Positions 13,877 through 60,495 of a stretch of DNA of 64,000 nt are shown one piece after another (position 1 is the first letter of the stretch; every line of letters starts with the position of its first letter). Below the pieces are notes generated by a model. That model was not told where the DNA came from, ran no database searches, and was given only the letters and a program-made list of their open reading frames with translations. The DNA comes from Octopus vulgaris. Taxonomy: Eukaryota. The stretch lies in the NCBI GenBank assembly GCA_951406725.2, contig OX597829.1, positions 7,936,001 through 8,000,000 on the forward strand, given 5' to 3'. A program made the position numbers and the translations under genes.

Positions 13877-16256
13877 AACAAAACATTCCGTTCATCTTGC
13901 TGAGTCAAAACATTTCGTTCGTTTTGCGGAGTCAAAACATTTCGTTCGTTTTGCGGAGTCAAAATATTTCGTTCGTTTTGCTGAGTCAATACATTGCGTT
14001 CCTCTTGCTGAGTCAAAACATTTTGTTCGTCTGGCTGATTCAAAAAATTTCATTCGTTTTACTGAGTCAATACATTTCGTTCGTTTTCCTGAGTCAATAC
14101 ATTTCGTTCATCTTGCAGAGTCAAAACATTCCTTTCGTCTTGCTGAGTCAAAACATTTCGTTTGTTTTGCTGAGACAAAACATTCCGTTCATCTTGCTGA
14201 GTCAAGACATTTCGTTCGTCTTGCTCAGTCAAAACATTTCGTTCGTATTCCTGAGTCAAAACATTTCGTTCGTTTTCCTGAGTCAAAACATTTCATTTGA
14301 TTTCCTGAGTCAAAACATTCCGTTCGTCTTGCTGAGTCAAAACATTTCGTTCATCTGCTGAGTCAAAACATTTCCTTTGTCTTGCTGAGCCAAAACATTT
14401 CGTTCGTCTTGCTGAGTCAAAACATTTCGTTTGTCTTGCTGAGTCAAAATATTTCGTTCATCTTGCTGAGTCGAAACATTTCATTCGTTTTGCTGAGTCA
14501 AAACATTTCATTTGTTTTGCTGAGTCAAAATCTCTCATTCGTCTTGCTGAGTCAAAAAATTTCATTCGTCTTGCTGAGTCAATACATTTCATTCGTTTTG
14601 CTGAGTCAAAACATTTCATTCGTCTTGCTGAGTCAAAACATTTCATTCGTCTTGCTGAGTCAAAACATTTCATTCGTTTTGCTGAGTCAAAACATTTCCT
14701 TTGTCTTGCTGACTCAAAACATTTCATTCTTCTTGCTGAGTCAAAACATTTCATTTGTTTTGCTGAGTCAAAACATTTCCTTTGTCTTTCTGAGTCAAAA
14801 CATTTCATTCGTTTTGCTGAGTCAAAACATTTCATTCGTCTTGCTGAGTCAAAGCATTTCATTCGTTTTGCTGAGTCAAAGCATTTCATTCGTTTTGCTG
14901 AGTCAAAACATTTCATTCGTCTTTCTGAGTCAAAACATTTCATTCGTTTTCCTGAGTCAAAACATGTCATTCGTTTTGCTGAGTCAAAACATCTCATTCG
15001 TTTTGATGAGTCAAAACATTTCATTCGTCTTGCTGAGTCAAAACATTTCATTCATTTTGCTGAGTCAAAGCATTCCTTTGTCTTCCTGAGTCAAAACATT
15101 TCATTCGTTTTGCTGTGTCAAAACATCTCATTCATCTTGCTGAGTCAAAACATTTCCTTTGTCTTGCTGAGTCAAAACATTTCATTCGTTTTGCTGAGTC
15201 AAAACATTTCATTCGTTTTGCTGAGTAAAAACATCTCATTCGTTTTGCTGAGTCAAAACATTTCATTCGTCTTGCTGAGTCAAAACATTTCATTCGTTTT
15301 GCTGAATCAAAACATTTCATTCGTCTTGCTGAGTGAAAACATTTCATTCGTTTTGCTGAGTCAAAACATTTCATTCGTCTTGCTGAGTGAAAACATTTCA
15401 TTCGTTTTGCTGAATCAAAACATTTCATTCGTCTTGCTGAGTCAAAACATTTCATTCGTTTTCCTGAGTCAAAACATGTCATTCGTTTTGCTGAGTCAAA
15501 ACATTTCATTCGTTTTGCTGAGTCAAAACATTTCATTCGTTTTGCTGAATCAAAACATTTCATTCGTTTTGCTGAGTCAAAACATTTCATTCGTTTTCCT
15601 GAGTCAAAATATTTCATTCGTTTTGCTGAGTCAAAACATCTCCTTCGTTTTGATGAGTCAAAACATTCCTTTGTCTTGCTGAGTCAAAATATTTCATTCG
15701 TTTTGCTGAGTCAAAACATCTCCTTCGTCTTGCTAAGTCAAAACATTTCATTCATTTTGCTGAGTCAAAACATTCCTTTGTCTTGCTGAGTCAAAACATT
15801 TCATTCGTTTTGCTGAGTCAAAATATTTCCTTTGTCTTGCTGAGTCAAAACATCTCATTCGTTTTGCTGAGTCAAAATATTTCATTCGTCTTGCTGAGTC
15901 AAAACATTTCATTCGGTTTGCTGAGTCAAAGCATTTCATTCATTTTGCTGAGTCAAAGCATTTCATTCGTCTTGCTGAGTAAAAACATCTCATTCGTTTT
16001 GATGAGTAAAAACATCTCATTCGTCTTGCTGAGTCAAAACATTTCATTCATTTTGCTGAGTCAAAACATTTCATTCGTTTTGCTGAGTCAAAACATTTCA
16101 TTCGTTTTGCTGAGTCAAAACATTTCATTCGTTTTGCTGAGTCAAAACATTTCATTCGTCTTGCTGAGTCAAAACATTTCATTCGTCTTGCTGAGTCAAA
16201 ACATTTCATTCGTCTTGCTGAGTCAAAACATTTCCTTTGTCTTGCTGAGTCAAGAC
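13877..16256. repeat. 27-bp minisatellite, about 88 units, consensus GCTGAGTCAAAACATTTCATTCGTTTT
   Basis: Direct inspection; 9-aa periodicity in ORF translations ([27 protein letters not shown]); copy number estimated as length/27. Confidence 0.98.
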
Positions 16257-16468
16257 ATATATATATACATACATACATATACGTACATATATATACATAC
16301 ATACATATACATACATATATATATATATATATACATATATATATACATACATACATACATATACATACATACATATATATATATATACATACATACATAC
16401 ATATACATACATACATACATATATATATATACATACATATAAATACATACATACATATACATACATAC

Positions 16469-16933: not shown

Positions 16934-18237
16934 CTGGGTGTTGAAACAGCTACTAAATGGCTCAAATGTGGGTGTGATATATCCCGACTTTGTAAAAGCC
17001 TTTGATAAGATCGACCATGGTATGATCTGTCACAAACTGCGTGGTCTCGGCACAGGCGGAAAACTTGGAGAGTGGCTGCACAACTTCCTAAAAGACAGAA
17101 AACAGGCAGTTGTGAGCAATGGAGCCACCTCCAAGGAAACACAAATAACAAGCGGTGTCCCACAGGGCACTGTCTTGGGGCCACTGATGTTCATAGTGTC
17201 CCTTTCAGCCATGCCTTCAGTTGCTACGATGACCACCCTTGCTAGCTATGCAGATGTCACAAATGTCTCCCACGGAATATAAAACCCTGAAAATATTGCG
17301 CATCTGCAACATGAGCTGGACACAATATACAGGTGGGCTGAGGACAACAACATGCAGTTTAATGCAGGTAAGTTCCAGGCCCTGCGTTACTGACACACAA
17401 AGGTAAACGACGTGCAGACTGGATACACTGGCCCAGGAAGAATTGCAGTCCCTGAGTCAAAATCATGCGTGACCTGGGCATTGACATGAGCAATGATGCA
17501 TCTTTCCAAATGCATATTGCTAATCTGGTGATAAAATGCAGACGACTAGCTGGATGGATTCTCCGAACTTTCAGAACAAGAGAGAAGGAGACATTGATGG
17601 TCCTATGGAAAACATTCGTCCTCAGCCGCTTGGACTACTGCTCCCAACTTTGGTCACCACACAATATAAAACTAACAACAGAACTCGAAGCAATTCAGAG
17701 AAGCTACACAAAGAAAATCGTCTCAATGCAAAATATCAGCTACTGGGAAAGACTGAAGGTATTAAACCTCTTCTCCCTAGAGCGGAGGCGAGAGAGATAT
17801 GCGGCGATATACATCTGGAAAATCCTGGAGGGTCTTGTCCCAAACTTTGGCATTCAAAGTTACTCCAACCGCAGAATGGGGCGCCACTGCATGGTGCCAA
17901 GGATTCCAACATCACCATCAAAATACAGGTCCAGATACTGCAACAGCTTGGGTTTCAGAGGACCACAGCTCTTTAACATCCTCCCTAAATGCCTGAGAGA
18001 CTTACATGGTGTGGATGTGGGTTTCTTTAAAACTAAACTGGATCTCTTCTTGTCGGGAGTCCCAGATGAGCCTACCTCACAACAGGAGACGCGGATGCGG
18101 GCTGCAGCATCGAACTCCCTTGTTGATCAAGTGCCACGTATCTGAGGTGGATTAACAAATTAGTGTAGCTCATTCAGCGGTGGTGCCCCAGCATGGCCGC
18201 GGCCCTCGGGCTACAACATTGTTAAGGATTTAGGATT
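16934..18237 (+). mobile_element. 5'-truncated CR1-group LINE, RT domain with stops and frameshift
   Basis: [34 protein letters not shown], then MRDLGI..SRLDYCSQLWSP..SLERRRERY..FKTKLDLFL; in-frame stops near 17280 and 17391; 3' tail ggtggtgccccagcatggccgcggccctcgggct. Confidence 0.93.
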
Positions 18238-18704
18238 TATATACATACATATATATATATACATATATACATACATATATACATACATATATACATACAT
18301 ATATATATACATATATACATACATATATATATATACATATATACATACATATATATATACATATATACATACATATATACATACATACATACATACATAT
18401 ATACATACATACATACATACATATATATATATACATACATACATACATACATATATATATACATACATATATATATATATATACATACATATATATATAT
18501 ATATACATACATACATATATATATATATATACATACATACATACATATATATATATATATACATACATATATATATATATATATATACATACATATATAT
18601 ATATACATACATATATATATATACATACATACATATATACATATATACATACGGCTGAAACAAGTAAAAGAGTAAAAGAGTATAGAGTATACATACATAC
18701 ATAT

Positions 18705-18737
<33 letters not shown>

Positions 18738-18876
18738 CATACATACATACATACATATATATATACATATATACATACATACATATATATATATACATAC
18801 ATATATATATACATATATACATACGGCTGAAACAAGTAAAAGAGTAAAAGAGTATAGAGTATACATACATACATAT

Positions 18877-18909
<33 letters not shown>

Positions 18910-19296
18910 CATACATACATACATACATATATATATATATACATACATACATATATATACATACATACATACATATATACATACATATATATATATATAC
19001 ATACATATATACATACATATATATACATACATACATATATACATACATATATATATATATATACATACATACATACATACATATATATATATATACATAC
19101 ATACATATATACATACATATATATATATATACATACATACATATATACATACATATATATATATACATACATACATATATACATACATATATATATATAC
19201 ATACATACATATATACATACATATATATATATATATACATACATACATATATATATATACATACATACATATATACATACATATATATATATATAT

Positions 19297-19329
<33 letters not shown>

Positions 19330-19724
19330 TATATATACATACATATATACATACATACATACATACATATATACATACATCTATATATATATATACATAC
19401 ATACATATATACATACATATATATATATATATACACATACATACATATATACATACATATATATATATATATATATACATACATACATATATACATACAT
19501 ATATATATATATATATACATACATACATATATACATACATATATATATATATACATACATACATATATACATACATATATATATATATATATACATACAT
19601 ACATATATACATACATATATATATATATATATACATACATACATATATACATACATATATATATATATATATACATACATACATATATACATACATATAT
19701 ATATATATATACATACATACATAT

Positions 19725-19755
<31 letters not shown>

Positions 19756-19860
19756 CATACATACATATATACATACATATATATATATATATATACATAC
19801 ATACATATACACATACATATATATATACATATACATACATATATACATATACATACATAT

Positions 19861-19891
<31 letters not shown>

Positions 19892-19924
19892 CATACATAT
19901 ATACATACATATATATATATATAT

Positions 19925-19967
<43 letters not shown>

Positions 19968-20358
19968 CATACATATATATACATATATATACATACATAT
20001 ATATATATATATATACATATATATACATACATACATACATATATATATATACATATATATACATACATACATATATATATACATATATATACATACATAC
20101 ATATATATATATACATATATATACATACATACATATATATATATACATATATATACATACATACATATATATATATACATATATATACATACATACATAT
20201 ATATATACATATATATACATACATACATATATATACATACATACATATATATATACATATATATACATACATACATATATATATACACATATATATACAT
20301 ACATACATATATATATACATATATATATACATACATACATATATATATACATATATAT

Positions 20359-20391
<33 letters not shown>

Positions 20392-20567
20392 CATACATAC
20401 ATATATATATATACATACATACATACATACATATATATACATATACATACATACATACATATATATACATATACATACATACATACATATATATACATAC
20501 ATACATACATATATATACATACATACATACATATATATATACATACATACATATATACATACATACA

Positions 20568-20599
<32 letters not shown>

Positions 20600-20786
20600 C
20601 ATATATATACATACATACATATATATATATACATACATACATATATATATATATACATACATACATATATATATACATACATACATATATACATACATAC
20701 ATACATATATACATACATACATACATACATATATATATATACATACATACATACATATATATATATACATACATACATACATATAT

Positions 20787-20819
<33 letters not shown>

Positions 20820-20956
20820 TATACATACATATATATATACATATATATATACATACATATATATATACATACATATATATATATACATATATATATACAT
20901 ACATATATATATATACACATATATATATACACATATATATACATATATATATATAC

Positions 20957-21015
<59 letters not shown>

Positions 21016-21016
21016 C

Positions 21017-21111
<95 letters not shown>

Positions 21112-21204
21112 TATATACATATATATATACATATATATATACATATATATATACATATATATATATACATATATATATACATATATATATACATATATAT
21201 ATAC

Positions 21205-21249
<45 letters not shown>

Positions 21250-21363
21250 TATATACATATATATATACATATATATATATACATATATATATACATATAT
21301 ATACATATATATATACATATATATACATACATATATATACATATATATATATATACATATATA
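18238..21363. repeat. 3.1-kb compound (TA)n/(TACA)n microsatellite containing two short SINE-tail inserts
   Basis: Direct inspection; inserts cggctgaaacaagtaaaagagtaaaagagtatagag near 18652 and 18824. Confidence 0.98.
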
Positions 21364-22280
21364 ACTACAAAATTAGAGAATGGAGAAACATACTTAAATC
21401 AGTAAAACATCAACTATCCGATGATACTCAATCCATACTTTAATACACCATTACATATGAGTAAAGGCAATATATAAAATGAAATGAGATATACAGTAAT
21501 AGTAAAAAGATAAAGAGATATAAGTAAAAAATTTCAAATATAATATGCAAATAAATCAAAACTGACAGCTGTTTCGGCAGTGAGGGCAGTCATACCTCAT
21601 TTAACCTATAAGCCATAAAGGCAGGTATAAATGAGGCATTAACAAGGATGCCCCACGGACCTGTTCAGAGAATTAAATTAAATTTGTTATAATAGTGAAA
21701 AATATTATATAATCATATACATATAAATATAAAAATATAAAAATGTATTTATATGTATATGATTATATAATATTTTTCACTATTATAACAAATTTAATTT
21801 AATTCTCTGAAGAGGCCGTGGGGCATCCTTGTTAATGCCTCATTTATACCTGCCTTTATGGCTTATAGGTTAAATGAGGTATGACTGTCCTCACTGCCGA
21901 AACAGCTGTCAGTTTTGATTTATTTGCATATTATATTTGAAATTTTTTACTTATATCTCTTTATCTTTTTACTATTACTGTATAACTCATTTCATTTTAT
22001 GTATTGCCTTTACTCATATGTAATGGTGTATTAAAGTATGGATTGAGTATCATCGGATAGTTGATGTTTTACTGATTTAAGTATATTTCTCCATTCTCTA
22101 ATTTTGTAGTATTAATTTACGGTAATATTATTACCTTTACCCATATAATGCAATAGATGAACTGATTGTTTGACAATTTTTAACATCTATGTATTAATTT
22201 TGTTGGGTACCTATCTAGCAGTATATTGGATATATATTATCCCATGGTGGGTTGAATTTTCAACCCCTATCTCATTTTAT
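21364..22280 (+). mobile_element. ORF-less palindromic element (366-bp inverted arms plus about 170-bp extension), probably a Penelope-like pseudo-LTR derivative
   Basis: 21364-21729 is the reverse complement of 21746-22110 with a few mismatches and a 16-nt spacer; contains a hammerhead motif; homologous to about 28700-29049. Confidence 0.8.
21801..21916 (+). ncRNA. type I hammerhead ribozyme motif with long stem II (family A)
   Basis: CTGAAGA 21807-21813; stem II GGC..GCC extended by gtgggg/cctcac and atgcctcattta/taaatgaggtat; GAAAC 21899-21903; palindromic stem III ACAGCTGT; GUC cleavage triplet ending 21910; stem I short (ct/ag). Confidence 0.75.
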
Positions 22281-23386
<1,106 letters not shown>

Positions 23387-23778
23387 ATATAATATTAATT
23401 AGAGACAAAACCACTATTTTGCAAATCAAACAAGGAAAGACTTAATCAATACATAAAAAAATTTTAATATAAAGTAAATAAATCACCACTACAATTGTTT
23501 CCTGTCTTCAAATGACATTCATAACTTTAAAATTGAATAGAAGATATGAAATCCACCTGATGAATGTCATTTGAAGACAGGAAACAATTGTAGTGGCGAT
23601 TTATTTACTTTATATTAAAATTTTTTTATGTATTGATTAAGTCTTTTCTTGTTTGATTTGCAAAATAGTGGTTTTGTCTCTAATTAATATTATATAATAT
23701 TTTACTATAAAATTGGATTCAATCCTAAATCTGATTTTTCCCTGTAAATTTGGATTTATTCCCTAATATTTATTATTA
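23387..23778 (+). mobile_element. ORF-less palindromic element (136-bp inverted arms, 37-nt spacer, about 80-bp extension), probably a Penelope-like pseudo-LTR derivative
   Basis: 23387-23522 is the reverse complement of 23560-23695; the hammerhead motif spans the spacer/right-arm junction. Confidence 0.8.
23549..23602 (+). ncRNA. type I hammerhead ribozyme motif (family B)
   Basis: Stem I CCAC(23553-56)/GTGG(23593-96); CTGATGA 23557-23563; stem II TGTC/GACA with an A.G opposition next to the core; GAAAC 23581-85; palindromic stem III ACAATTGT; GUA triplet ending 23592. Confidence 0.75.
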
Positions 23779-23800
23779 CATACATACATATATATATATA

Positions 23801-25031
23801 CGAAGAGATCATGCTTGACCAACTTACTAGTAATGGAAGAATTGGTGACGCGCATCCTCGATGATAGTGATGCTGTTGACATCGTTTTACTGGACTTTGC
23901 CAAAGCTTTTGACTCGGTAAACCACCGCCTATTACTTGTCAAGCTTCAAGCCTATAGTTTCCATCCGGATATTGTACGATGGGTTGGTGCCTTCCTCTCA
24001 GATCGCTCCTTCCAAGTCCAAGTTAATGGTTCGCGGTCCGACGTCTCCAGTACGAGCAGTGGCGTGCCTCAAGGTTCAGTGCTTGGGCCCTTGTTGTTCT
24101 TAGTCTTCATAAATGACTTGCCCGACGACCTCACGCAACACACCCTTCAATTTGCCGACGATATCAAACTGGTCGCTCCTCGCGGTAATATAGAGGATCT
24201 TCGTCGATGCCTCCACCAAATTTGGAAGTGGTCTAACGATTGGGACCTGTGTCTGAACGTGTCAAAGTGCTGTCATCTGCCTGTCAGCTCTACTCCTGCA
24301 ACTCAACTTGATTTCGAGCCGGGTCGTCTGCTGCTGGAGAGGACCGATCAGGTAAAGGACCTAGGTATCTTGGTGGATTCCTCCTTTTCGCCTTCGGCCC
24401 AGTGCGTCCATGCTGCCAACAAAACACGCGAAATTCTGTTCTTGATTCGACGGTCATTCGGAATGCTCACAGCAGCCATATTCCTACCACTCTATGTCAC
24501 GCTGGTGAGACCCATATTGGAGTATGGGATTCAAGCCTCTTCTCCTTATCTCCTCAAAGACATACAGCATCTCGAAAGAGTCCAGAAGCTGGCTACCCGC
24601 ATGGTTCATGGTCTCAAATATTTGTCCTACGAAGAAAGGCTGAGGACATTCGACCTTTATTCTCTTGAAAAACGCCGCCGCCGTAGTGATCTCATTCTCG
24701 CCCACAATATCATAAGCGGAAAGTGTAACCTCTCGAAAGAGCTGTTCTTCACTCCTGCTCCAGAGCGTCGGCTGCGGGGTCATTCCGAGAAGCTCTACCT
24801 GCGACGATTTCATCTCAATCGAAGGAGAGGAGCTTTCTCCGTCCAGGTTGCAGATCCGTGGAACAAGCTGCCAGACGAGATGGTAAAGATGCCGACGACC
24901 GCTTTGTTCAAAGCCTCCCTGGACCTCAAGTGGCCTGAACTCTTTACATGAACACCACCCTGTACTTAACTCCATGTCCCCCTACATGGCCTTGCTATTT
25001 GCTTTTGAGCCAAATTAACTAACTAACTAAC
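23801..25031 (+). mobile_element. young 5'-truncated CR1-group LINE with uninterrupted RT reading frame
   Basis: ORF 23815..24951: LDFAKAFDSV, SGVPQGSVLGPLLF, FADDIKL, KDLGI, RPILEY, WNKLP; short 3' UTR ending in (TAAC)n; both flanks are microsatellite. Confidence 0.96.
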
Positions 25032-27048: not shown

Positions 27049-29049
27049 ATTATGTTATTCATCTATTCCTTTTTTGTACTCATTATCTACAGGTATAAAT
27101 TTACATAATATTAGCCTGTATTCTAAGTTTATATTAGTACTTTCTTCAATATATATCTTCACTTTATTTTATGTTATTTATTTACATATATACTCTTTTA
27201 AGCATATATGGATATATGCATATTAGCATTACTACATATTAGGTGTACCTGCACCTATGTATTTATCTGAATTTGTTCTCTAGTGTATCTATCTACTCAT
27301 TTAGGCATCTACTTATTTATTTATTTACTTATTTAAGTGTAGATATATACATATATATCAATTATTTATTTTAATAATTAATATATGGATACACGTATAC
27401 TGGTTTGTACTTATATTATGTATGTAATCTTAACTATTTCTTCTTTCTTATTTATTTTATCACATTTTTAACTTAAGTATTTACAATTTATTAACTTATA
27501 ATTAATTTAATTTCTGTTATTTACTTATATTTAACTGTATTAGTTAGTCCCCCATTGATATTATTGAATGCCAAATCTTGTTAATTATCACATTTGTTAA
27601 CTATGTCTCCACGGTTGCTTAAAAATATATTTTTATATATAAGTACTTTAAATGTTTTCTCGCGAGCCGCATATGAGTATGAACGGTGCGTTTGTTTATA
27701 TCTGATGATACACATGAGTATGTATATCTGAGTGTAATTCTATTAGCTCGTAGGTTAGGTTCCTTGTTGGTTAAATATTAATATTATAATGGCACTGGAT
27801 TTATTACGTAGAAAAGATATATATTTATAATATAAAAAATTAATCTATACTTTTTAACTTAGCGTACATGCGATTATGGCAAATTACGGTGAAATCAGTA
27901 ATCGTTATGTTGACTACAGAAAAAACCGGTGTTCACATACTGAGTGTACCCTGCGAAAATAACATCCGATGTCGTGATATATAATTATATGTATCTTTAA
28001 AACAAATATTTTATGGAAATATATGAGTGGATCTATTTTGTTAATTTTGTGGCATGTTTTTAGTTTTGGTAAGCTGAATGGCTGCATGGATAGGATTATA
28101 CCTCTTTTATTATTTATTTATTTATTTATGTGTTGGACTGGGTTTGTGGATATGTATGGGTATGAGTGTATGTGTGTGTGTATACATATAATTATGTATG
28201 TATGTGCGATTGATCTGTGGATGTGCGTGTGCGTTTCTTGACTAACTAACCGTAAAATTTCTTTTGTGATTCAAATTTTAAACTATAAGCCAATCGAATT
28301 AATCTAGAATAATCAATATTAAGCGGACAGAATAACCAGACTCTTAGTTATGTCGATATCCGGTATCTATTATTATTATTATTATTATTAATATTAATAG
28401 TAATTCTTATTGACTTTTGCAGGTTTATAATTTTATGAACTGAAATGTGGTTTTTTATTATTATTTTTCATGTATAGGTCTGATTTTAATTTAAATGTGA
28501 GTGTGCATATATTTTCCTGTGTGTTAACTTTTAGAACTATTAGCTCAATATGTAGAATAATTTTGCTTACTAATATATATTGATATATATTTTGTTTTAT
28601 TTTGTTTTGTTTATCTTGTATTATTGTATTAATGAATATATATATATGTATGTGTAGTATTATGGTGTCTATGCACACGTTTTTATATTTTACATTTTTA
28701 TATTTATATGTATATGAAAAAACTTTTTTCACAATTATAATTTATTAAATTCTCTGAAGAGGCCGTGGGGCATCCTTGTTAATGTCTCATTTATACCTGC
28801 CTTATATGGCTTATAGGTTAAATGAGGCATGATTGCCCTTACTGCCGAAACAGCTGTCAGATATGATATAATTACATATTATATTTTATATTTTATATTT
28901 CTATTTCCTTGTCTAATTATATTTACAATATATTTTGTATAATGCCTTTACTGTTATGTAATGGTGTAATAAAGTATTGATTGGGTATCATCTGATAGTT
29001 GATGTTTGATTGATTTAAGTATGTTTCTCCATTTTCTAATTTTGTAGCA
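27049..29049 (+). mobile_element. AT-rich non-coding segment ending in a family-A hammerhead/pLTR, probably the 3' remnant of a Penelope-like element
   Basis: 28750-29049 is homologous to 21800-22110 (ctctgaagaggccgtggggcatcc..; gatagttgatgttt..tctccatt.tctaattttgtag); bounded by microsatellite on both sides; whether the upstream 1.7 kb belongs to the element is uncertain. Confidence 0.55.
28748..28864 (+). ncRNA. type I hammerhead ribozyme motif (family A, second locus)
   Basis: tct-CTGAAGA(28754-60)-GGC..GCC-GAAAC(28847-51)-AGCT-GTC(28856-58)-aga; stem I tct/aga; long stem II retained. Confidence 0.78.
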
Positions 29050-36829: not shown

Positions 36830-38135
36830 ATAGTTAAATTTACAGAAAAACAAAGGGCAAAGACAGGTATAGGAACAACAAGCAGGTGTATTAGTTTAAT
36901 GCTCAGAAAAAATAGAAAAGTCTTTTATGTTTTGAGCCTATGCTCTTCAACGGAAAGGAATAAGAGGGAAAAAATGGAGAGAGAGAGAATGAGAAAAAAC
37001 GGAGAGAGAAAACTGTGTAAAGTTCGGTGGCCCAACATGGCAAGATGACTGGAAAAAAGAAAGTCGAATGAAAGGGAGATAATAATGGTAATCCCAACAA
37101 ACTAAGATGCACAAGCATGAGTGTGTATGGAAGAATGGTGTGTGTGAGTGTTCATGTGTGTATTTGTGAAAGGGGGTGAGTGACGTATATGTGTGTAACG
37201 TGTGTGTGTTATGTGTAGCAGTTGATGTGTGCTTTTTCAATTGGTGTGTGCATATGTATGTGTAACCAAATAGTGTTCATGCTTGTGGGTGAAAATTATC
37301 TTGCATGTGTTTATGCATGTTCCATGTGTTTATGCATGCTGTGTGTGTGTGTGTATTGTCGGTGTTCAGGTATTACGTGCTTGTGATCATGTGGGAGTGT
37401 GCATGATGGTGTATGGTGCGCTAAACAGTGTGTGTGGCTGCTCATATAGTGGTTCATATAGTGGTTCACGCTATTGAAGACTGTGTGAGAGTGTGTGGAT
37501 AACAGTGTTTGGTATGGGTGCTGAGAAGTGGTCAGTGCTAGTGATTGTGGAGTGGGAAGGTGTTATGAAGGTATGTGTGTGTGTGTGTGTATGAAATGAG
37601 TGATGAGTTGGACAGTATGGGTATGTATAGTAGTGTGTGTCTGGTGTGGATACTGAGGTGGGTAGTATGCAAGAGTGTACGTGGAGGGAGCAGTTGACTG
37701 TGGGAGGTGTGTGGGAATCCAAGTGGTGTTGGTGTCAAGAGGAAGTGAGTTGAACCCATATGGTGCAAAGGAACAAAGAGAGGAGGTGGGTTGAGCCCAT
37801 ATGACACAAAGACAAAGGCAGAATCCCAGGTAACCCCTATTCAGAGACAGTCCAAACATAGACAGATGTTGTAGCATATAACCAGTAGAGTGGAAGTGGT
37901 AGAAGATCGGGGTGTCATTGCCAAATCTGATGTTTGAGAGGTACTTTGCGAACCAGTCAGCCAAGTTGAGTCCCATTTGACCAATGTAAAGGGAAGGTCA
38001 GAGAGAGTAAGGGATGCAGTAAATAACATTACTAGAGGTGCAGGTAAAGGAGTCAGTGACATGATAGGGATGGTGATGGGTGCCTGTGAGGATGGTAGAG
38101 TTGGAAAGGTAGAGGAAGGTGCAACAGTGTGGAAG
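36830..38135 (-). mobile_element. Penelope-like retroelement 3' fragment (Neptune-like GIY-YIG endonuclease remnant, 3' UTR and terminal repeat)
   Basis: Minus-strand translation across frames gives DSFTCTSSNVIYCIPYSL..LYIGQMGLNLADWFAKYLSNIR..PIFYHFHSTG..HLSMFGL..APYGFN, matching the PLE GIY-YIG layout; terminal segment 36830-36990 is homologous to 46530-46690. Confidence 0.8.
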
Positions 38136-55263: not shown

Positions 55264-55438
55264 AAATATAAATAATATTAATAGAAATATTTATAATGAT
55301 AATAATAAGGATAATACAAATAGAAATAATATCGGGAATGAGGATAACAATTATATCTATAGCAGTAATAATTATTCGGATATAAATACAAATAATAATA
55401 ATAGCAATACCAATAATGTAGGTAATTGTGATACTGTT

Positions 55439-56026
55439 ATGGTAGATCTAAATGATAGTGTAAACGGATCGATAAATAGTAACCCAATTTTAGATAACAA
55501 TATTACCTTTAATAACGAAAATAATACTCATAATAATTTGAATAGCAGCAATATGAGAGATCTGTCCTTAAATAATTCTAAATCTGAAAATTATCCCCCT
55601 AGTTGCAATTGTAGGATTAAGTCAAAATGTCCGGCATCTGGTCGGTGTTTGGTCCATAATTTAATCAATAAATGTACTATAACAACTTCGAATAGTAACT
55701 TTTTTTACCTGGGTTGTACTATTAATTTTAAACTGAGACTTAACAATCATCTCTCCTCTTTCCGGTTAGATCATAAAGCTGGTTGCACCACACTTTCCAG
55801 TAAAATTTGGGAACTCAAAACTAATAATATTAAATATAACCTAAAATGGGAAATAGTTAGAAGGGCAGTACCTTATAGAAATAATAGGGTGGGCTGTCAA
55901 CTCTGTTCCATGGAGACATATGAGATTCTAAAGCATAGAAAAAATAAAAATCTACTAAATAATTGTATAGAGTTGGATATATCTTGTATTCACTCAAAAA
56001 TCAAAATTTTAAAATATTTCAAATAG
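55439..56026 (+). CDS. C-terminal GIY-YIG endonuclease domain of a Penelope-like element (truncated ORF; the Met is internal)
   Basis: YLG motif, catalytic-type Arg in FKLR, HLSSF, CxLC..E, LLN; the first motif reads LINKC instead of xIYxx. Confidence 0.75.
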   Translation: MVDLNDSVNGSINSNPILDNNITFNNENNTHNNLNSSNMRDLSLNNSKSENYPPSCNCRIKSKCPASGRCLVHNLINKCTITTSNSNFFYLGCTINFKLRLNNHLSSFRLDHKAGCTTLSSKIWELKTNNIKYNLKWEIVRRAVPYRNNRVGCQLCSMETYEILKHRKNKNLLNNCIELDISCIHSKIKILKYFK

Positions 56027-56955
56027 AAATTTTGTAAGTTCTCCTATTGTTGTTCTTTCTAACTGCACCTTTTTAATATAAAAATAAGTACTAATTGTAC
56101 TATGCTAATTTTTAATTGACTTTATAGTCAATTTAATTAACCTTACTGAAATTTAAAAATTGCTAATTTTTCCAAATTCTATTCTAAATTTAACATGTAA
56201 TACTATTCCCTTAGTGATACTTTTGATTTTCACTATAAATTTTGAATAGGTACGATTCTCCTACCATTTGCTATTGATGTTAATTGACCTCTAGATGTTA
56301 ACCTAAATTCCTTCTTACCATATAAAAACAAAAGTTAAAATATAAACTATAATAAATAAATAACCCTCTATTCTAGTGTTAACCTTAATTTTCTTACTGT
56401 ATCTCTCTCTACCGATAACCTATGACTCCTTTAATGTTTTCCTTTGATCTTCCTGTATTCTTAATCCCACTATTAATTCTGTGAGTTTTTCAGTTGAGAG
56501 CTGGTGGTGGTCAAACTTACAGTTCTTTTAAGAATTTAAGATTCCTTCTACACTGACCTAGATTTTCTGTCCCCACAGATATAGACTGACCTTTCTTTGT
56601 AGTATCTTTATTCCTTCTTACATCCCCATTATATTTTTTTCTCCTGCTGTCCTTTGCTCTAGCTAAACCTACCCCGCTGTCTTTCATGCTACTATAGAAT
56701 TTTGTCTGCAACAGTTAGATGCGAACTTAACCATAGACTGACCGGCATCTCTCCTCATGTTTCTTGGAACTTATATCCACATCTTGATGAGTAGATTTAT
56801 CTTCTCTGGCATATCAATAATTAATTTAAAAACTTTGTATTGTTGGAAAACATATATAGTCTGTTTGGAATATTACTTCAAATTCATGGAACTACTCCTA
56901 TAACTTCATAAGGATATTTACACGCTCTAAGAATATATGGAAAACCTATATGAAA

Positions 56956-57042
56956 TTTAGCTGAAGAATACTTGACATTATATTTGGTGTAATATTTGCA
57001 GCTTTAAATAAAATGTTTATAGTATGAAACAATTGTACTAAA
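56956..57042 (+). ncRNA. type I hammerhead ribozyme motif (family C)
   Basis: Stem I TTTAG(56956-60)/CTAAA(57038-42) perfect; CTGAAGA 56961-67; stem II ATACT/AGTAT perfect with a long loop; GAAAC 57026-30; stem III ACAATTGT; GUA triplet ending 57037. Confidence 0.85.
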
Positions 57043-57126
57043 CTACTGATCCATTCTTCTTGCTTTTTTCTTGGTTATATATATATATATATACTCATAC
57101 AAATAGAAAAGTATATGCTCATACAC

Positions 57127-58573: not shown

Positions 58574-60495
58574 TAACTTAGAATAACTTAGAAAGGTTTT
58601 TGGCCAGTATTGGCCCAGGCCATGTCTAACTTAATAGCACCACCTGGCGAAGTCTTTCAGTTCAGGATTTGGGCACCAAGGCCCATTCGAGCAGAGAGTT
58701 ATTGTTTGCGGAGACATATCCGGGTGTGGATGGTTTGTCCGGTACTGTTTGAAGGAATTTGTCCAAAGACTTCTTGAATTTTGTGTGGTCAGTTTCTTTT
58801 TTGACGTGTCCTGGTGTAATGTTGAAGAGAGCGGGTCCAATTGAGGTGAAATAGTTGTGCCGTATTGTCGTTATGTGATGCGATTTAGATTTTTGTTGTG
58901 GACGGATGGCACGTGGTCCAAGCCTTGGATGCATTTTGAAGGTGATGCCAACATCATTCGGACAGTGCTGATGGAATATTTTCCACATCATACAGATAAT
59001 GTAGCGTTCACGGCGTCGTTGGAGTGAATACAATTTCAGCTTCTCTAGTCTACCCCAGTAGTCAAGGTCTGACATGCCATCTATCTTTTTTGTGATTGAC
59101 CTTTGGGGAGCTTCAATTCTCATAATATTTTGTTTTGTGTAGGGAGACCACAGTGGACAGCAGTATTCAAGGTGGGGTCGGGCAAAAGTGGAGAAGAGAA
59201 GGATAATAGCGTGGGAATCTCTCGACTGGAAGGTTCTGAGAATCCAGGAACACATTCTGCGGGCCATGTCAACTTTGCTGCTTATATGTGTAGCCCAGCT
59301 TATGTTGTTGTCCACTGTTACTCCCAGGTCTCTGATGTTGTTGGATGCCATGAGAATTTCTCCAGAAGGAAGAGAGTATGGGAGTTTCAGAGCGTCCTCC
59401 CTTCCAAAGTGGATCAGTTCGAATTTGTCTTCATTTAGCAACATGTTATTCTTTTCCGCCCATTGGACAACAGCTAGTAGGTCTGACTGAAGGTTTATTC
59501 GGTCATCCACGCCATTGATGACCTTCTGGAGCTTGGAATCATCAGCGAAGGTTCTGATGTTGCTGTGTTTGATGGTGTCAGTAATATCATTTATGTAGAT
59601 GATGAAGAGAAGTGGGCCCAACACAGTGCCTTGTGGGACACCACTGCTGACTTTGGCTGGGCTGGATTTGACTCCTTCGACTACAACATGTTGGGTTCTG
59701 TTAGAGAGGAAGCACTTGATCCATTGCAGCAGCTTTCCAGTGACACCAATATTGGACAGCTTTCTCAGAAGGATCTTATGATCAACCCTGTCAAAGGCCT
59801 TGCTGAAATCAAGGTAGATGACATCAGTGTTGGAACCCTCTCCCAAGGCTCTCAAAATGTCATCAAAATGATGCAGTAGCTGCGTCAAGCAATCTCTCCC
59901 ATTACGGAATCCATGCTGGTTGGGGTTCAGCATATTATGACTCTCAAGGAAGTGAGTCATACGCGATCTCAGCACCCTCTCAAATACCTTGATGGTATAT
60001 ATGAGAGGTGAGTGAGATTGGACGGTAATTCACGGCAAGTGATTTGTTTCCTTTTTTGAAAACTGGGACAACAGACTGGGATAGAAGGTCTTCTGGTATA
60101 TATCCAGCATCCAATGAGTTCCGCCACAGATTGGCTAGAGGGGGTGCAAGTTGGTTTTGACACATCTTCAAGACACAAGCAGGGAACCTATCGGGACCTA
60201 CTGCTGAATTATGCTTCATTTCCTTTATTGCTGCTAAGACATCAGGAGCGCCAAATGTTATGTCCGATAAAGTGTATTGGGGAGTAACATCACTGATACA
60301 GCCCAGATCAGTCATATCAGGATTGCTGAAAACAGAGCAATATTGTTTCTGCAATATTTCTCCCATGGTTTTGGCATTGTCTTGAAGAATACCATTTTCA
60401 TCAATCAGAGGGCCAACAGTAGAACCAGTGACTCTGTGTTTTTTTGCAAATGAAAAGAACACTTTGGGATTGAGTTTGATCTTCTCAATGGCCCA
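58574..60495 (-). mobile_element. young 5'-truncated CR1-group LINE with a complete RT domain and one frameshift
   Basis: [30 protein letters not shown], frameshift near 59990, then ORF 58662..59975 [45 protein letters not shown]; tail (ttctaagtta)2. Confidence 0.96.

Follow-up and report, generated by a model that had tools for sequence, protein, structure and literature searches.

The window, that is, the whole 64-kb stretch of octopus DNA (64,000 nucleotides) analysed here, contains an insert of 914 nt that is made of two truncated, hammerhead-bearing ends of one repeat family, arranged head-to-head within a TA microsatellite. The arms of this palindrome (21364–21729 and 21746–22110) are inverted copies of each other, with five substitutions and one indel over 366 alignment columns, which corresponds to 98.4% identity. 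These six differences bear out the inverted repeat claimed in an earlier note on this DNA, which had described two arms of 366 bp; this length applies to the left arm, and the right arm is 365 nt long. The microsatellites that the note had placed on both sides were also found, as (TA)/(CATA) arrays at 18238–21363 and from 22278 onwards. The features of the locus and its surroundings are as follows:

18238–21363, no strand: (TA)/(CATA) microsatellite array of ~3.1 kb, left flank and likely target
21364–21745, minus strand: left copy, an inverted, 5′-truncated 3′ end of the element (382 nt, counting the 16-nt 'spacer')
21564–21668, minus strand: damaged hammerhead of the left copy (G8C and a 1-nt insertion)
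21745–21747, no strand: head-to-head junction of both copies, between 21745 and 21746 (from alignments and contig ends)
21746–22110, plus strand: right copy, a 5′-truncated 3′ end of the element, pseudo-LTR-like segment
21799–21918, plus strand: minimal type I hammerhead (from motif scan and fold prediction)
22111–22277, plus strand: 167-nt tail, present in the right copy only (family sequence by contig matches)
22278 to about 23386–23395, no strand: (TA)/(CATA) microsatellite array of ~1.1 kb, right flank
23387–23780, no strand: second hammerhead palindrome of a different family with the same build (from motif scan and alignment)
27051–29048, plus strand: AT-rich 2-kb insert between microsatellites, ending in a solo copy of the family
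55264–57078, plus strand: 5′-truncated Hydra-type Penelope element of another family, with (TA)n on both sides

The insert was compared with contigs from four public runs (X4, X5, X9, and X12; 2036 contig pieces), and all counts of loose contig ends given below are those among the matches listed, which comprise 32 of these pieces; a further 148 loose ends lie beyond the listing. Contigs aligned in each of the four runs tried (1078, 826, 77, and 45) and carried many variants. So many variant contigs indicate a multi-copy family, for which depth gives no copy number. At least two-thirds of the words of the stretch were present in 20 of 24 listed public runs, which came from eight studies.

The 16 nt between the arms, previously taken for a spacer, are element sequence and belong to the left copy. 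Their minus-strand reading matches the sequence upstream of the arm in another copy of the family, located at 28688–29048. Among the matches listed, three contigs of X5 have the 'spacer' sequence ahead of 21746. The minus-sense reading extends beyond 21747 in listed contigs of X12 and X4, which have loose ends at 21746–21747. The family sequence thus runs beyond the centre of the palindrome, as indicated both by these loose ends and by the copy at 28.7 kb. Because the 'spacer' is family sequence from upstream of the arm, two 5′-truncated copies meet head-to-head at 21745/21746. The dinucleotide TA at 21746–21747 suits both copies and represents a 2-nt microhomology at the junction. The 3′ end of the left copy abuts (TA)n without a tail, at a site equivalent to 22110, and the right arm carries a private change of its own at 21985. 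Since the insert lies in (TA)n, a target-site duplication is not readable, an issue that PMC8557442 likewise notes for (TA)n targets.

An assembly or library fold-back artefact in this microsatellite-rich region would be in keeping with the kilobase-long simple repeats on both sides, and among the matches listed no independent contig bridges the junction, the query having included only 16 nt to the left of it. We nevertheless regard an artefact as extremely improbable. The arms differ at six places, some of them with letters that are seen in other copies, and the left copy includes 16 nt of true family sequence that are absent from the right copy. Moreover, only one side has a tail, a natural 3′ end of the family coincides with the left end, and the flanks show no mirroring of unique sequence.

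Hammerhead motif of the right arm and lesions of the left arm

In the right arm, the order CUGANGA ... GAAA ... UH of a type I hammerhead is present at 21807–21910. It comprises the core CTGAAGA (21807–21813), a helix II of 85 nt with 33 predicted pairs (21814–21898), GAAA (21899–21902), a helix III of two pairs around the palindromic loop AGCT (AC-AGCT-GT), and the triplet GTC, with cleavage predicted after 21910. The closing pair of helix II, G10.1–C11.1 (G21814–C21898), had a probability of 0.99 in the isolated fold. Helix I consists of two pairs, a tandem U–U mismatch, and four pairs; its probability was ~0.7 when folded alone and 0.17 in the context of arm plus tail. The pairing probability predicted for helix III of the monomer was 0.00. 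The motif had earlier been called a complete type I hammerhead. The core, GAAA, GTC, and the predicted cleavage site stood, whereas 'complete' was an overstatement, given the interrupted helix I and the predicted absence of helix III pairing.

The strict core at a distance of up to 130 nt from the 3′ half of the palindromic loop occurred four times in the 64-kb window, in three families. By chance, this pattern is expected 0.015 times (mean of 200 locally shuffled windows, three of which contained one match). The fold of 21790–21930 had a z-score of −3.97, and none of 200 shuffles was as good. Rfam returned no hammerhead match at the gathering score over the whole window, and none at E up to 10, where the 64 rows for 21300–23850 were hairpin-type chance matches only; a separate search at 21746–22277 gave one weak row and no hammerhead. 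Because Rfam lists no hammerhead here, the assignment rests on the motif. A stricter descriptor, which demanded at least four contiguous pairs in helix I and a paired base of helix II, found only the hammerhead at 56961 and missed the right-arm ribozyme because its helix I is weak. The ribozyme motif pattern was found at no locus in metagenome and viral contigs. Judged from the sequence, the hammerhead motif is genuine and above chance level, and its capacity for self-cleavage is putative.

The left arm reads CTGAACA on the minus strand. This corresponds to a G8C change at 21663, in agreement with the earlier note. A second lesion that the note had missed, an extra T at 21659, lies at the base of helix II. 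The solo copy at 28.7 kb has an intact G8, and no variant at 21807–21813 with a share of at least 5% was listed in any of the four runs covering this segment, a missing row being no proof of absence. Both lesions, the G8C change and the extra T, probably reflect private errors or subsequent decay rather than parts of a switch.

When the right arm is compared with the 28.7-kb copy, the ribozyme region keeps 106 of 111 letters and its flanks 101 of 149, a contrast that suggests selection on the ribozyme fold in source copies of the family and that is confounded by base composition, as the flanks are AT-rich. All five changes in helix II between these two copies keep the pairing; all are G–C/G–U exchanges, with no double compensatory change among them. 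Of the six variants listed inside helix II, four keep the pair, one is unpaired, and one breaks the pair unless its partner co-varies. Of note, a minority subfamily resembles the 28.7-kb copy in carrying A at 21913 and 21915, which creates a third pair in helix I. The share of A in the depth at 21913 was 6% in X9, 11% in X5, 32% in X12, and 8% in X4, where depth again gives no copy number.

The earlier note had proposed that a read-through transcript could switch between the ribozyme fold and a dsRNA, which would be a substrate for ADAR or RNAi. In an RNA through both arms, 362 of 365 right-arm bases are predicted to pair with the left arm. The predicted energy of this full hairpin is −634.7 kcal/mol, compared to −44.1 kcal/mol for the isolated ribozyme region, and all ribozyme helices have a probability of 0.00 in it. 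Motifs with a palindromic helix III need a dimer partner, which the arms cannot provide, as each transcript contains a single ribozyme in sense orientation. Because the hairpin is predicted to displace the ribozyme fold and this partner is lacking, a ribozyme/dsRNA switch at the locus is unlikely on the folding model. Read-through is instead predicted to yield a hairpin trap that would remove the ribozyme fold. The hammerhead likely serves the tandem transcripts of the parent element, as a dimer or with the help of protein, and is likely idle at the palindrome locus. Among the contig matches listed, no pile-up of ends occurred, contigs being unable to reveal transcript starts, strand, or editing.

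Tail, solo copy, and neighbouring elements

The tail of the right copy is family sequence. A contig of X4 matches 22097–22266 without differences, and a contig of X12 spans 22081–22277. Among the matches listed, at least three contigs (X9 and X4) have loose ends into (TA)n at 22108–22112 and at least six (X12 and X4) at 22274, so that the family has two 3′ ends into (TA)n, at ~22110 and ~22274. The last 70 nt of the tail are predicted to form three hairpins (22200–22277; z-score −2.38, with 4 of 200 shuffles as good). They are common to other repeat families, which differ upstream of 22204–22219 and in the last loop; loose ends at 22204–22254, among the matches listed, mark this common portion. 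It is possible that the three hairpins represent a common 3′ signal. The tail motif pattern was found at no locus in metagenome and prokaryote contigs. The 3′ ends at 22095–22110, 22262–22277, and 23678–23695 are similar: both palindromes have CTCTAATT ahead of the arm end, and the tail end follows a CTCATTT stretch. By eye, the tail had also been considered HDV-like; this reading was dropped, because the pairings of a nested pseudoknot could not be traced in it.

The family is also represented at 28688–29048 by a solo copy without a tail. This copy is 83% identical, has an intact core (28754–28760), and runs into (TA)n at the position that corresponds to 22110. The 1.6 kb of AT-rich sequence preceding it (27051–28687) contain no ORF over 102 aa and may belong to the interior of a non-autonomous element, constitute a long UTR, or have no relation to the family. 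A comparison of 150 Hydra-type proteins and their profile with the 1.7 kb that precede the solo copy revealed no endonuclease remnant. In the literature search, which covered papers rather than repeat libraries such as Repbase and Dfam, no description of this hammerhead family was found.

The second palindrome lies 1.1 kb away from the first. Its arms (23387–23522 and 23560–23695) differ at two of 136 positions, and its tail of ~85 nt is likewise one-sided. The core CTGATGA (23557–23563) is complete in the right copy only, because the left copy is truncated inside the core. The right copy of this palindrome includes 37 extra nucleotides, and both arms have A–G as the first pair of helix II.

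The element at 55 kb contains a GIY-YIG frame (55265–56026; Pfam E-value 0.0049, below the curated cut-off) with an Asn-rich stretch and with CxCX5C linker, CxxC, and CxH motifs. About 930 nt separate its stop codon from the core of its hammerhead (56961–57037), which has a helix II of 58 nt, a helix I of five pairs, and a palindromic helix III. A full scan with the 55-kb endonuclease yielded 3611 relatives at E up to 0.001, and a word-based homologue search against longer proteins yielded none among 110 candidates. All four long relatives that were checked carry the RT-type motif YRDD together with the same cysteine motifs, and one of them also carries RWK. The CxCX5C linker, CxxC, CxH, and RWK are motifs that PMC8557442 (section 11) gives for proteins of the Hydra clade. 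Pfam matched only two of eight long homologues, both as GIY-YIG, and did not recognise the RT. The DNA of the 55-kb element shows no similarity to the palindrome family. Comparison of the 150 Hydra-type proteins and their profile with the window gave matches at 55–56 kb only, and no RT/GIY-YIG frame sharing the 3′ end of the family was detected within the 64-kb window. A frame on the minus strand at 37563–37997 with a YIG-like start looked like a decayed GIY-YIG remnant; it matched neither Pfam nor the Hydra proteins. Truncated LINE reverse transcriptase fragments are located between (TA)/(CATA) arrays at 16935–18235, 23800–25030, and 58662–60484 (Pfam RVT_1 for two of them), and a satellite array at 13879–16258 repeats a 27-nt unit 88 times.

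Origin of the palindrome

We consider, with a probability of roughly 85%, that a single event of Penelope-like retrotransposition left truncated ends head-to-head in a TA microsatellite and that the palindrome is its dead-end product. The link to Penelope-like elements (PLEs) and the targeting of microsatellites that the earlier note had suggested are supported by the head-to-head build, the one-sided tail, and the (TA)n ends. The insert displays an inverted, 5′-truncated copy in head-to-head orientation, a tail at one end, two 3′ ends, and a hammerhead in the terminal repeat, all of which are traits of Penelope insertions. According to the legend of Fig. 2 and section 6 of PMC8557442, an inverted 5′-truncated copy lies beside the 5′ end of such elements, and the tail is often present at one end only. 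Head-to-head is the most frequent inverted arrangement reported in PMC3846280. Section 11 of PMC8557442 describes insertion of nearly all Hydra families in (TA)n and hammerheads at their 3′ ends, several with a CTGAAGA core, and File S2 of the same paper lists the motif on both strands of Penelope-13_HM through its inverted copy. The solo copy, the second palindrome of the same build, the Hydra-type endonuclease upstream of a similar hammerhead at 55–57 kb, and the better preservation of the ribozyme region likewise speak for this origin. Judging by the neighbouring elements and the target, our guess is that the parent is most likely a member of the Hydra clade.

In the proposed mechanism, the RT/GIY-YIG protein of an autonomous element would cut the AT-rich target and would then prime cDNA on element RNA from both DNA ends of the cut TA tract. 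One cDNA would start near 22110, without the tail, and the other near 22277, with the tail. Both would stop early and would be joined at the 2-nt microhomology. We infer the priming from both ends and the joining from published Penelope biology. The PAc protein characterised in PMC11167929 cuts AT-rich DNA and extends both strands, with two RNA start sites that define the tail. Several findings stand against the proposed origin. No RT or endonuclease is linked to the family, and the 55-kb element is unrelated in DNA. Furthermore, the tail measures 167 nt versus the published 30–40 nt, and helix II has 33 pairs versus 4–8 (PMC4209133). The unreadable target-site duplication, the lack of a bridging contig among the matches listed, and the compositional bias in the conservation contrast also count against it.

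As a variant that does not exclude this origin, the family could be a dedicated non-autonomous Penelope parasite of ~2 kb without an ORF, and the palindrome its truncated insertion product. The 2-kb insert at 27051–29048, which ends in family sequence and has no endonuclease remnant detected in it, points in this direction, as do the last 70 nt of the tail, which are common to other families, and published non-autonomous PLE derivatives (PMC8557442, section 10; bioRxiv 10.64898/2026.07.22.740005). However, this insert is one copy only and may itself be 5′-truncated with a long 3′ UTR, comparable to the ~930 nt at 55 kb, and its upstream part may be unrelated DNA. We therefore entertain a dedicated parasite only tentatively.

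A quite different reading builds on that of the earlier note: the palindrome itself would be a mobile MITE- or retrozyme-like unit that amplifies as a hairpin, with one dead ribozyme enabling the switch. Near-perfect arms, one intact core beside a broken one, and two hammerhead palindromes within 2 kb would fit this reading. Since the family extends beyond the centre, is also present as a solo copy, and showed no head-to-tail tandem, a dedicated unit of this kind is not supported; nor does the one-sided tail of the palindrome agree with a fixed MITE unit, which is bounded by terminal inverted repeats and amplified as such. Among the matches listed, the one opposite-strand joint lies elsewhere (21916/22201, one contig), and G8C is absent from the variants listed at 5% or more in four runs, where a missing row is no proof. 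In addition, the ribozyme helices vanish from the predicted read-through fold, and the second palindrome comes from another family and breaks inside its core. We thus consider a mobile palindromic unit very unlikely.

For the preferred origin by Penelope-like retrotransposition, the step that produces the inverted arm can be envisaged in two ways, and the formation of PLE inverted repeats is named as unresolved in PMC8557442. The arm may have arisen by fold-back self-priming on a single template, a published model for head-to-head PLE junctions (PMC3846280), with the arm differences acquired later or via gene conversion. This would change a step of the mechanism, not the identity of the insert. 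The 98.4% identity of the arms and the microhomology at the centre agree with self-priming. On the other hand, the 3′ ends at which the two copies begin are not the same, and two of the five substitutions (21888 and 22001) show both letters among the contigs of the family. At 21888 both letters occur in all four runs; at 22001 the right-arm letter occurs only in X5 and X4. Self-priming is possible, and we lean somewhat against it. Alternatively, each arm could have been copied from a different RNA, with a dimeric Penelope protein priming two cDNAs whose start sites lie 167 nt apart. The chance of such shared-site differences is 0.002–0.054 under assumed hit rates of 1.4–8%. These differences hint at two templates; mutation hot spots or gene conversion would give the same picture, and we regard copying from two RNAs as rather doubtful.

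The locus would represent one more truncated Penelope-type insert, and hammerhead palindromes in microsatellites would be routine products of such elements. Comparing haplotypes between arms could discriminate models in which one template yields the inverted repeat from those that require two. With its long helix II and its long, structured tail, the family also broadens the spectrum of PLE ends known so far. If two templates were indeed used, palindromes would be fossil records of twin-template insertion, and haplotype counts over thousands of copies would settle the origin of the inverted repeat. Similarly, the three-hairpin tail end common to several families, if it is a true signal, would be an RNA element recognised by the protein.

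Comparison with known systems

The palindrome shares with the insertion units of endonuclease-positive PLEs (PMC8557442, Fig. 2; PMC3846280, Fig. 2) the head-to-head inverted 5′-truncated copy, the tail at one end, the hammerhead near the 3′ end, and the AT-rich target. It differs from them in keeping no ORF and in its longer tail (167 nt versus 30–40 nt in these units). With PLEs of the Hydra clade (Penelope-13_HM, Hydra-1_Obim; PMC8557442, section 11, Files S1 and S2), it has in common the (TA)n target, the type I hammerhead at the 3′ end, with CTGAAGA in several of them, and the inverted copy that places the motif on both strands; moreover, the window includes a Hydra-type fragment. In contrast, the Hydra hammerheads listed in PMC8557442 have a helix II of ~3–7 pairs, compared to 33 pairs here, and the motif GAAACAGCTGTC was not found in the PMC8557442 supplement.

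Non-LTR retrozymes (PMC7229834; bioRxiv 10.64898/2026.07.22.740005) resemble the octopus family in having no ORF, a type I hammerhead, and a proposed PLE origin. However, they are organised as head-to-tail tandem units of 150–450 nt that release circular RNAs, whereas the copies described here are inverted or solo. No array of head-to-tail tandem hammerhead units lies in the window, and no tandem-type joint occurred among the matches listed.

The in vitro system of PAc (Poseidon, Anolis; PMC11167929) likewise has an AT-rich target, and its tail is delimited by two RT start sites. Its hammerhead is dispensable for insertion, and G8C abolishes cleavage, not insertion. PAc differs in belonging to another clade and in its short tail, which is located in the ORF start. 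The minimal PLE hammerheads described in PMC4209133 are also of type I; their short, palindromic helix III is predicted to require a dimer, and their helix I is short (two pairs in D. virilis); the octopus motif departs from them in its helix II of 85 nt with 33 predicted pairs. The same paper reports pairs of minimal hammerheads on opposite strands, 100–700 bp apart, in Schistosoma, an arrangement that resembles that of the palindrome.
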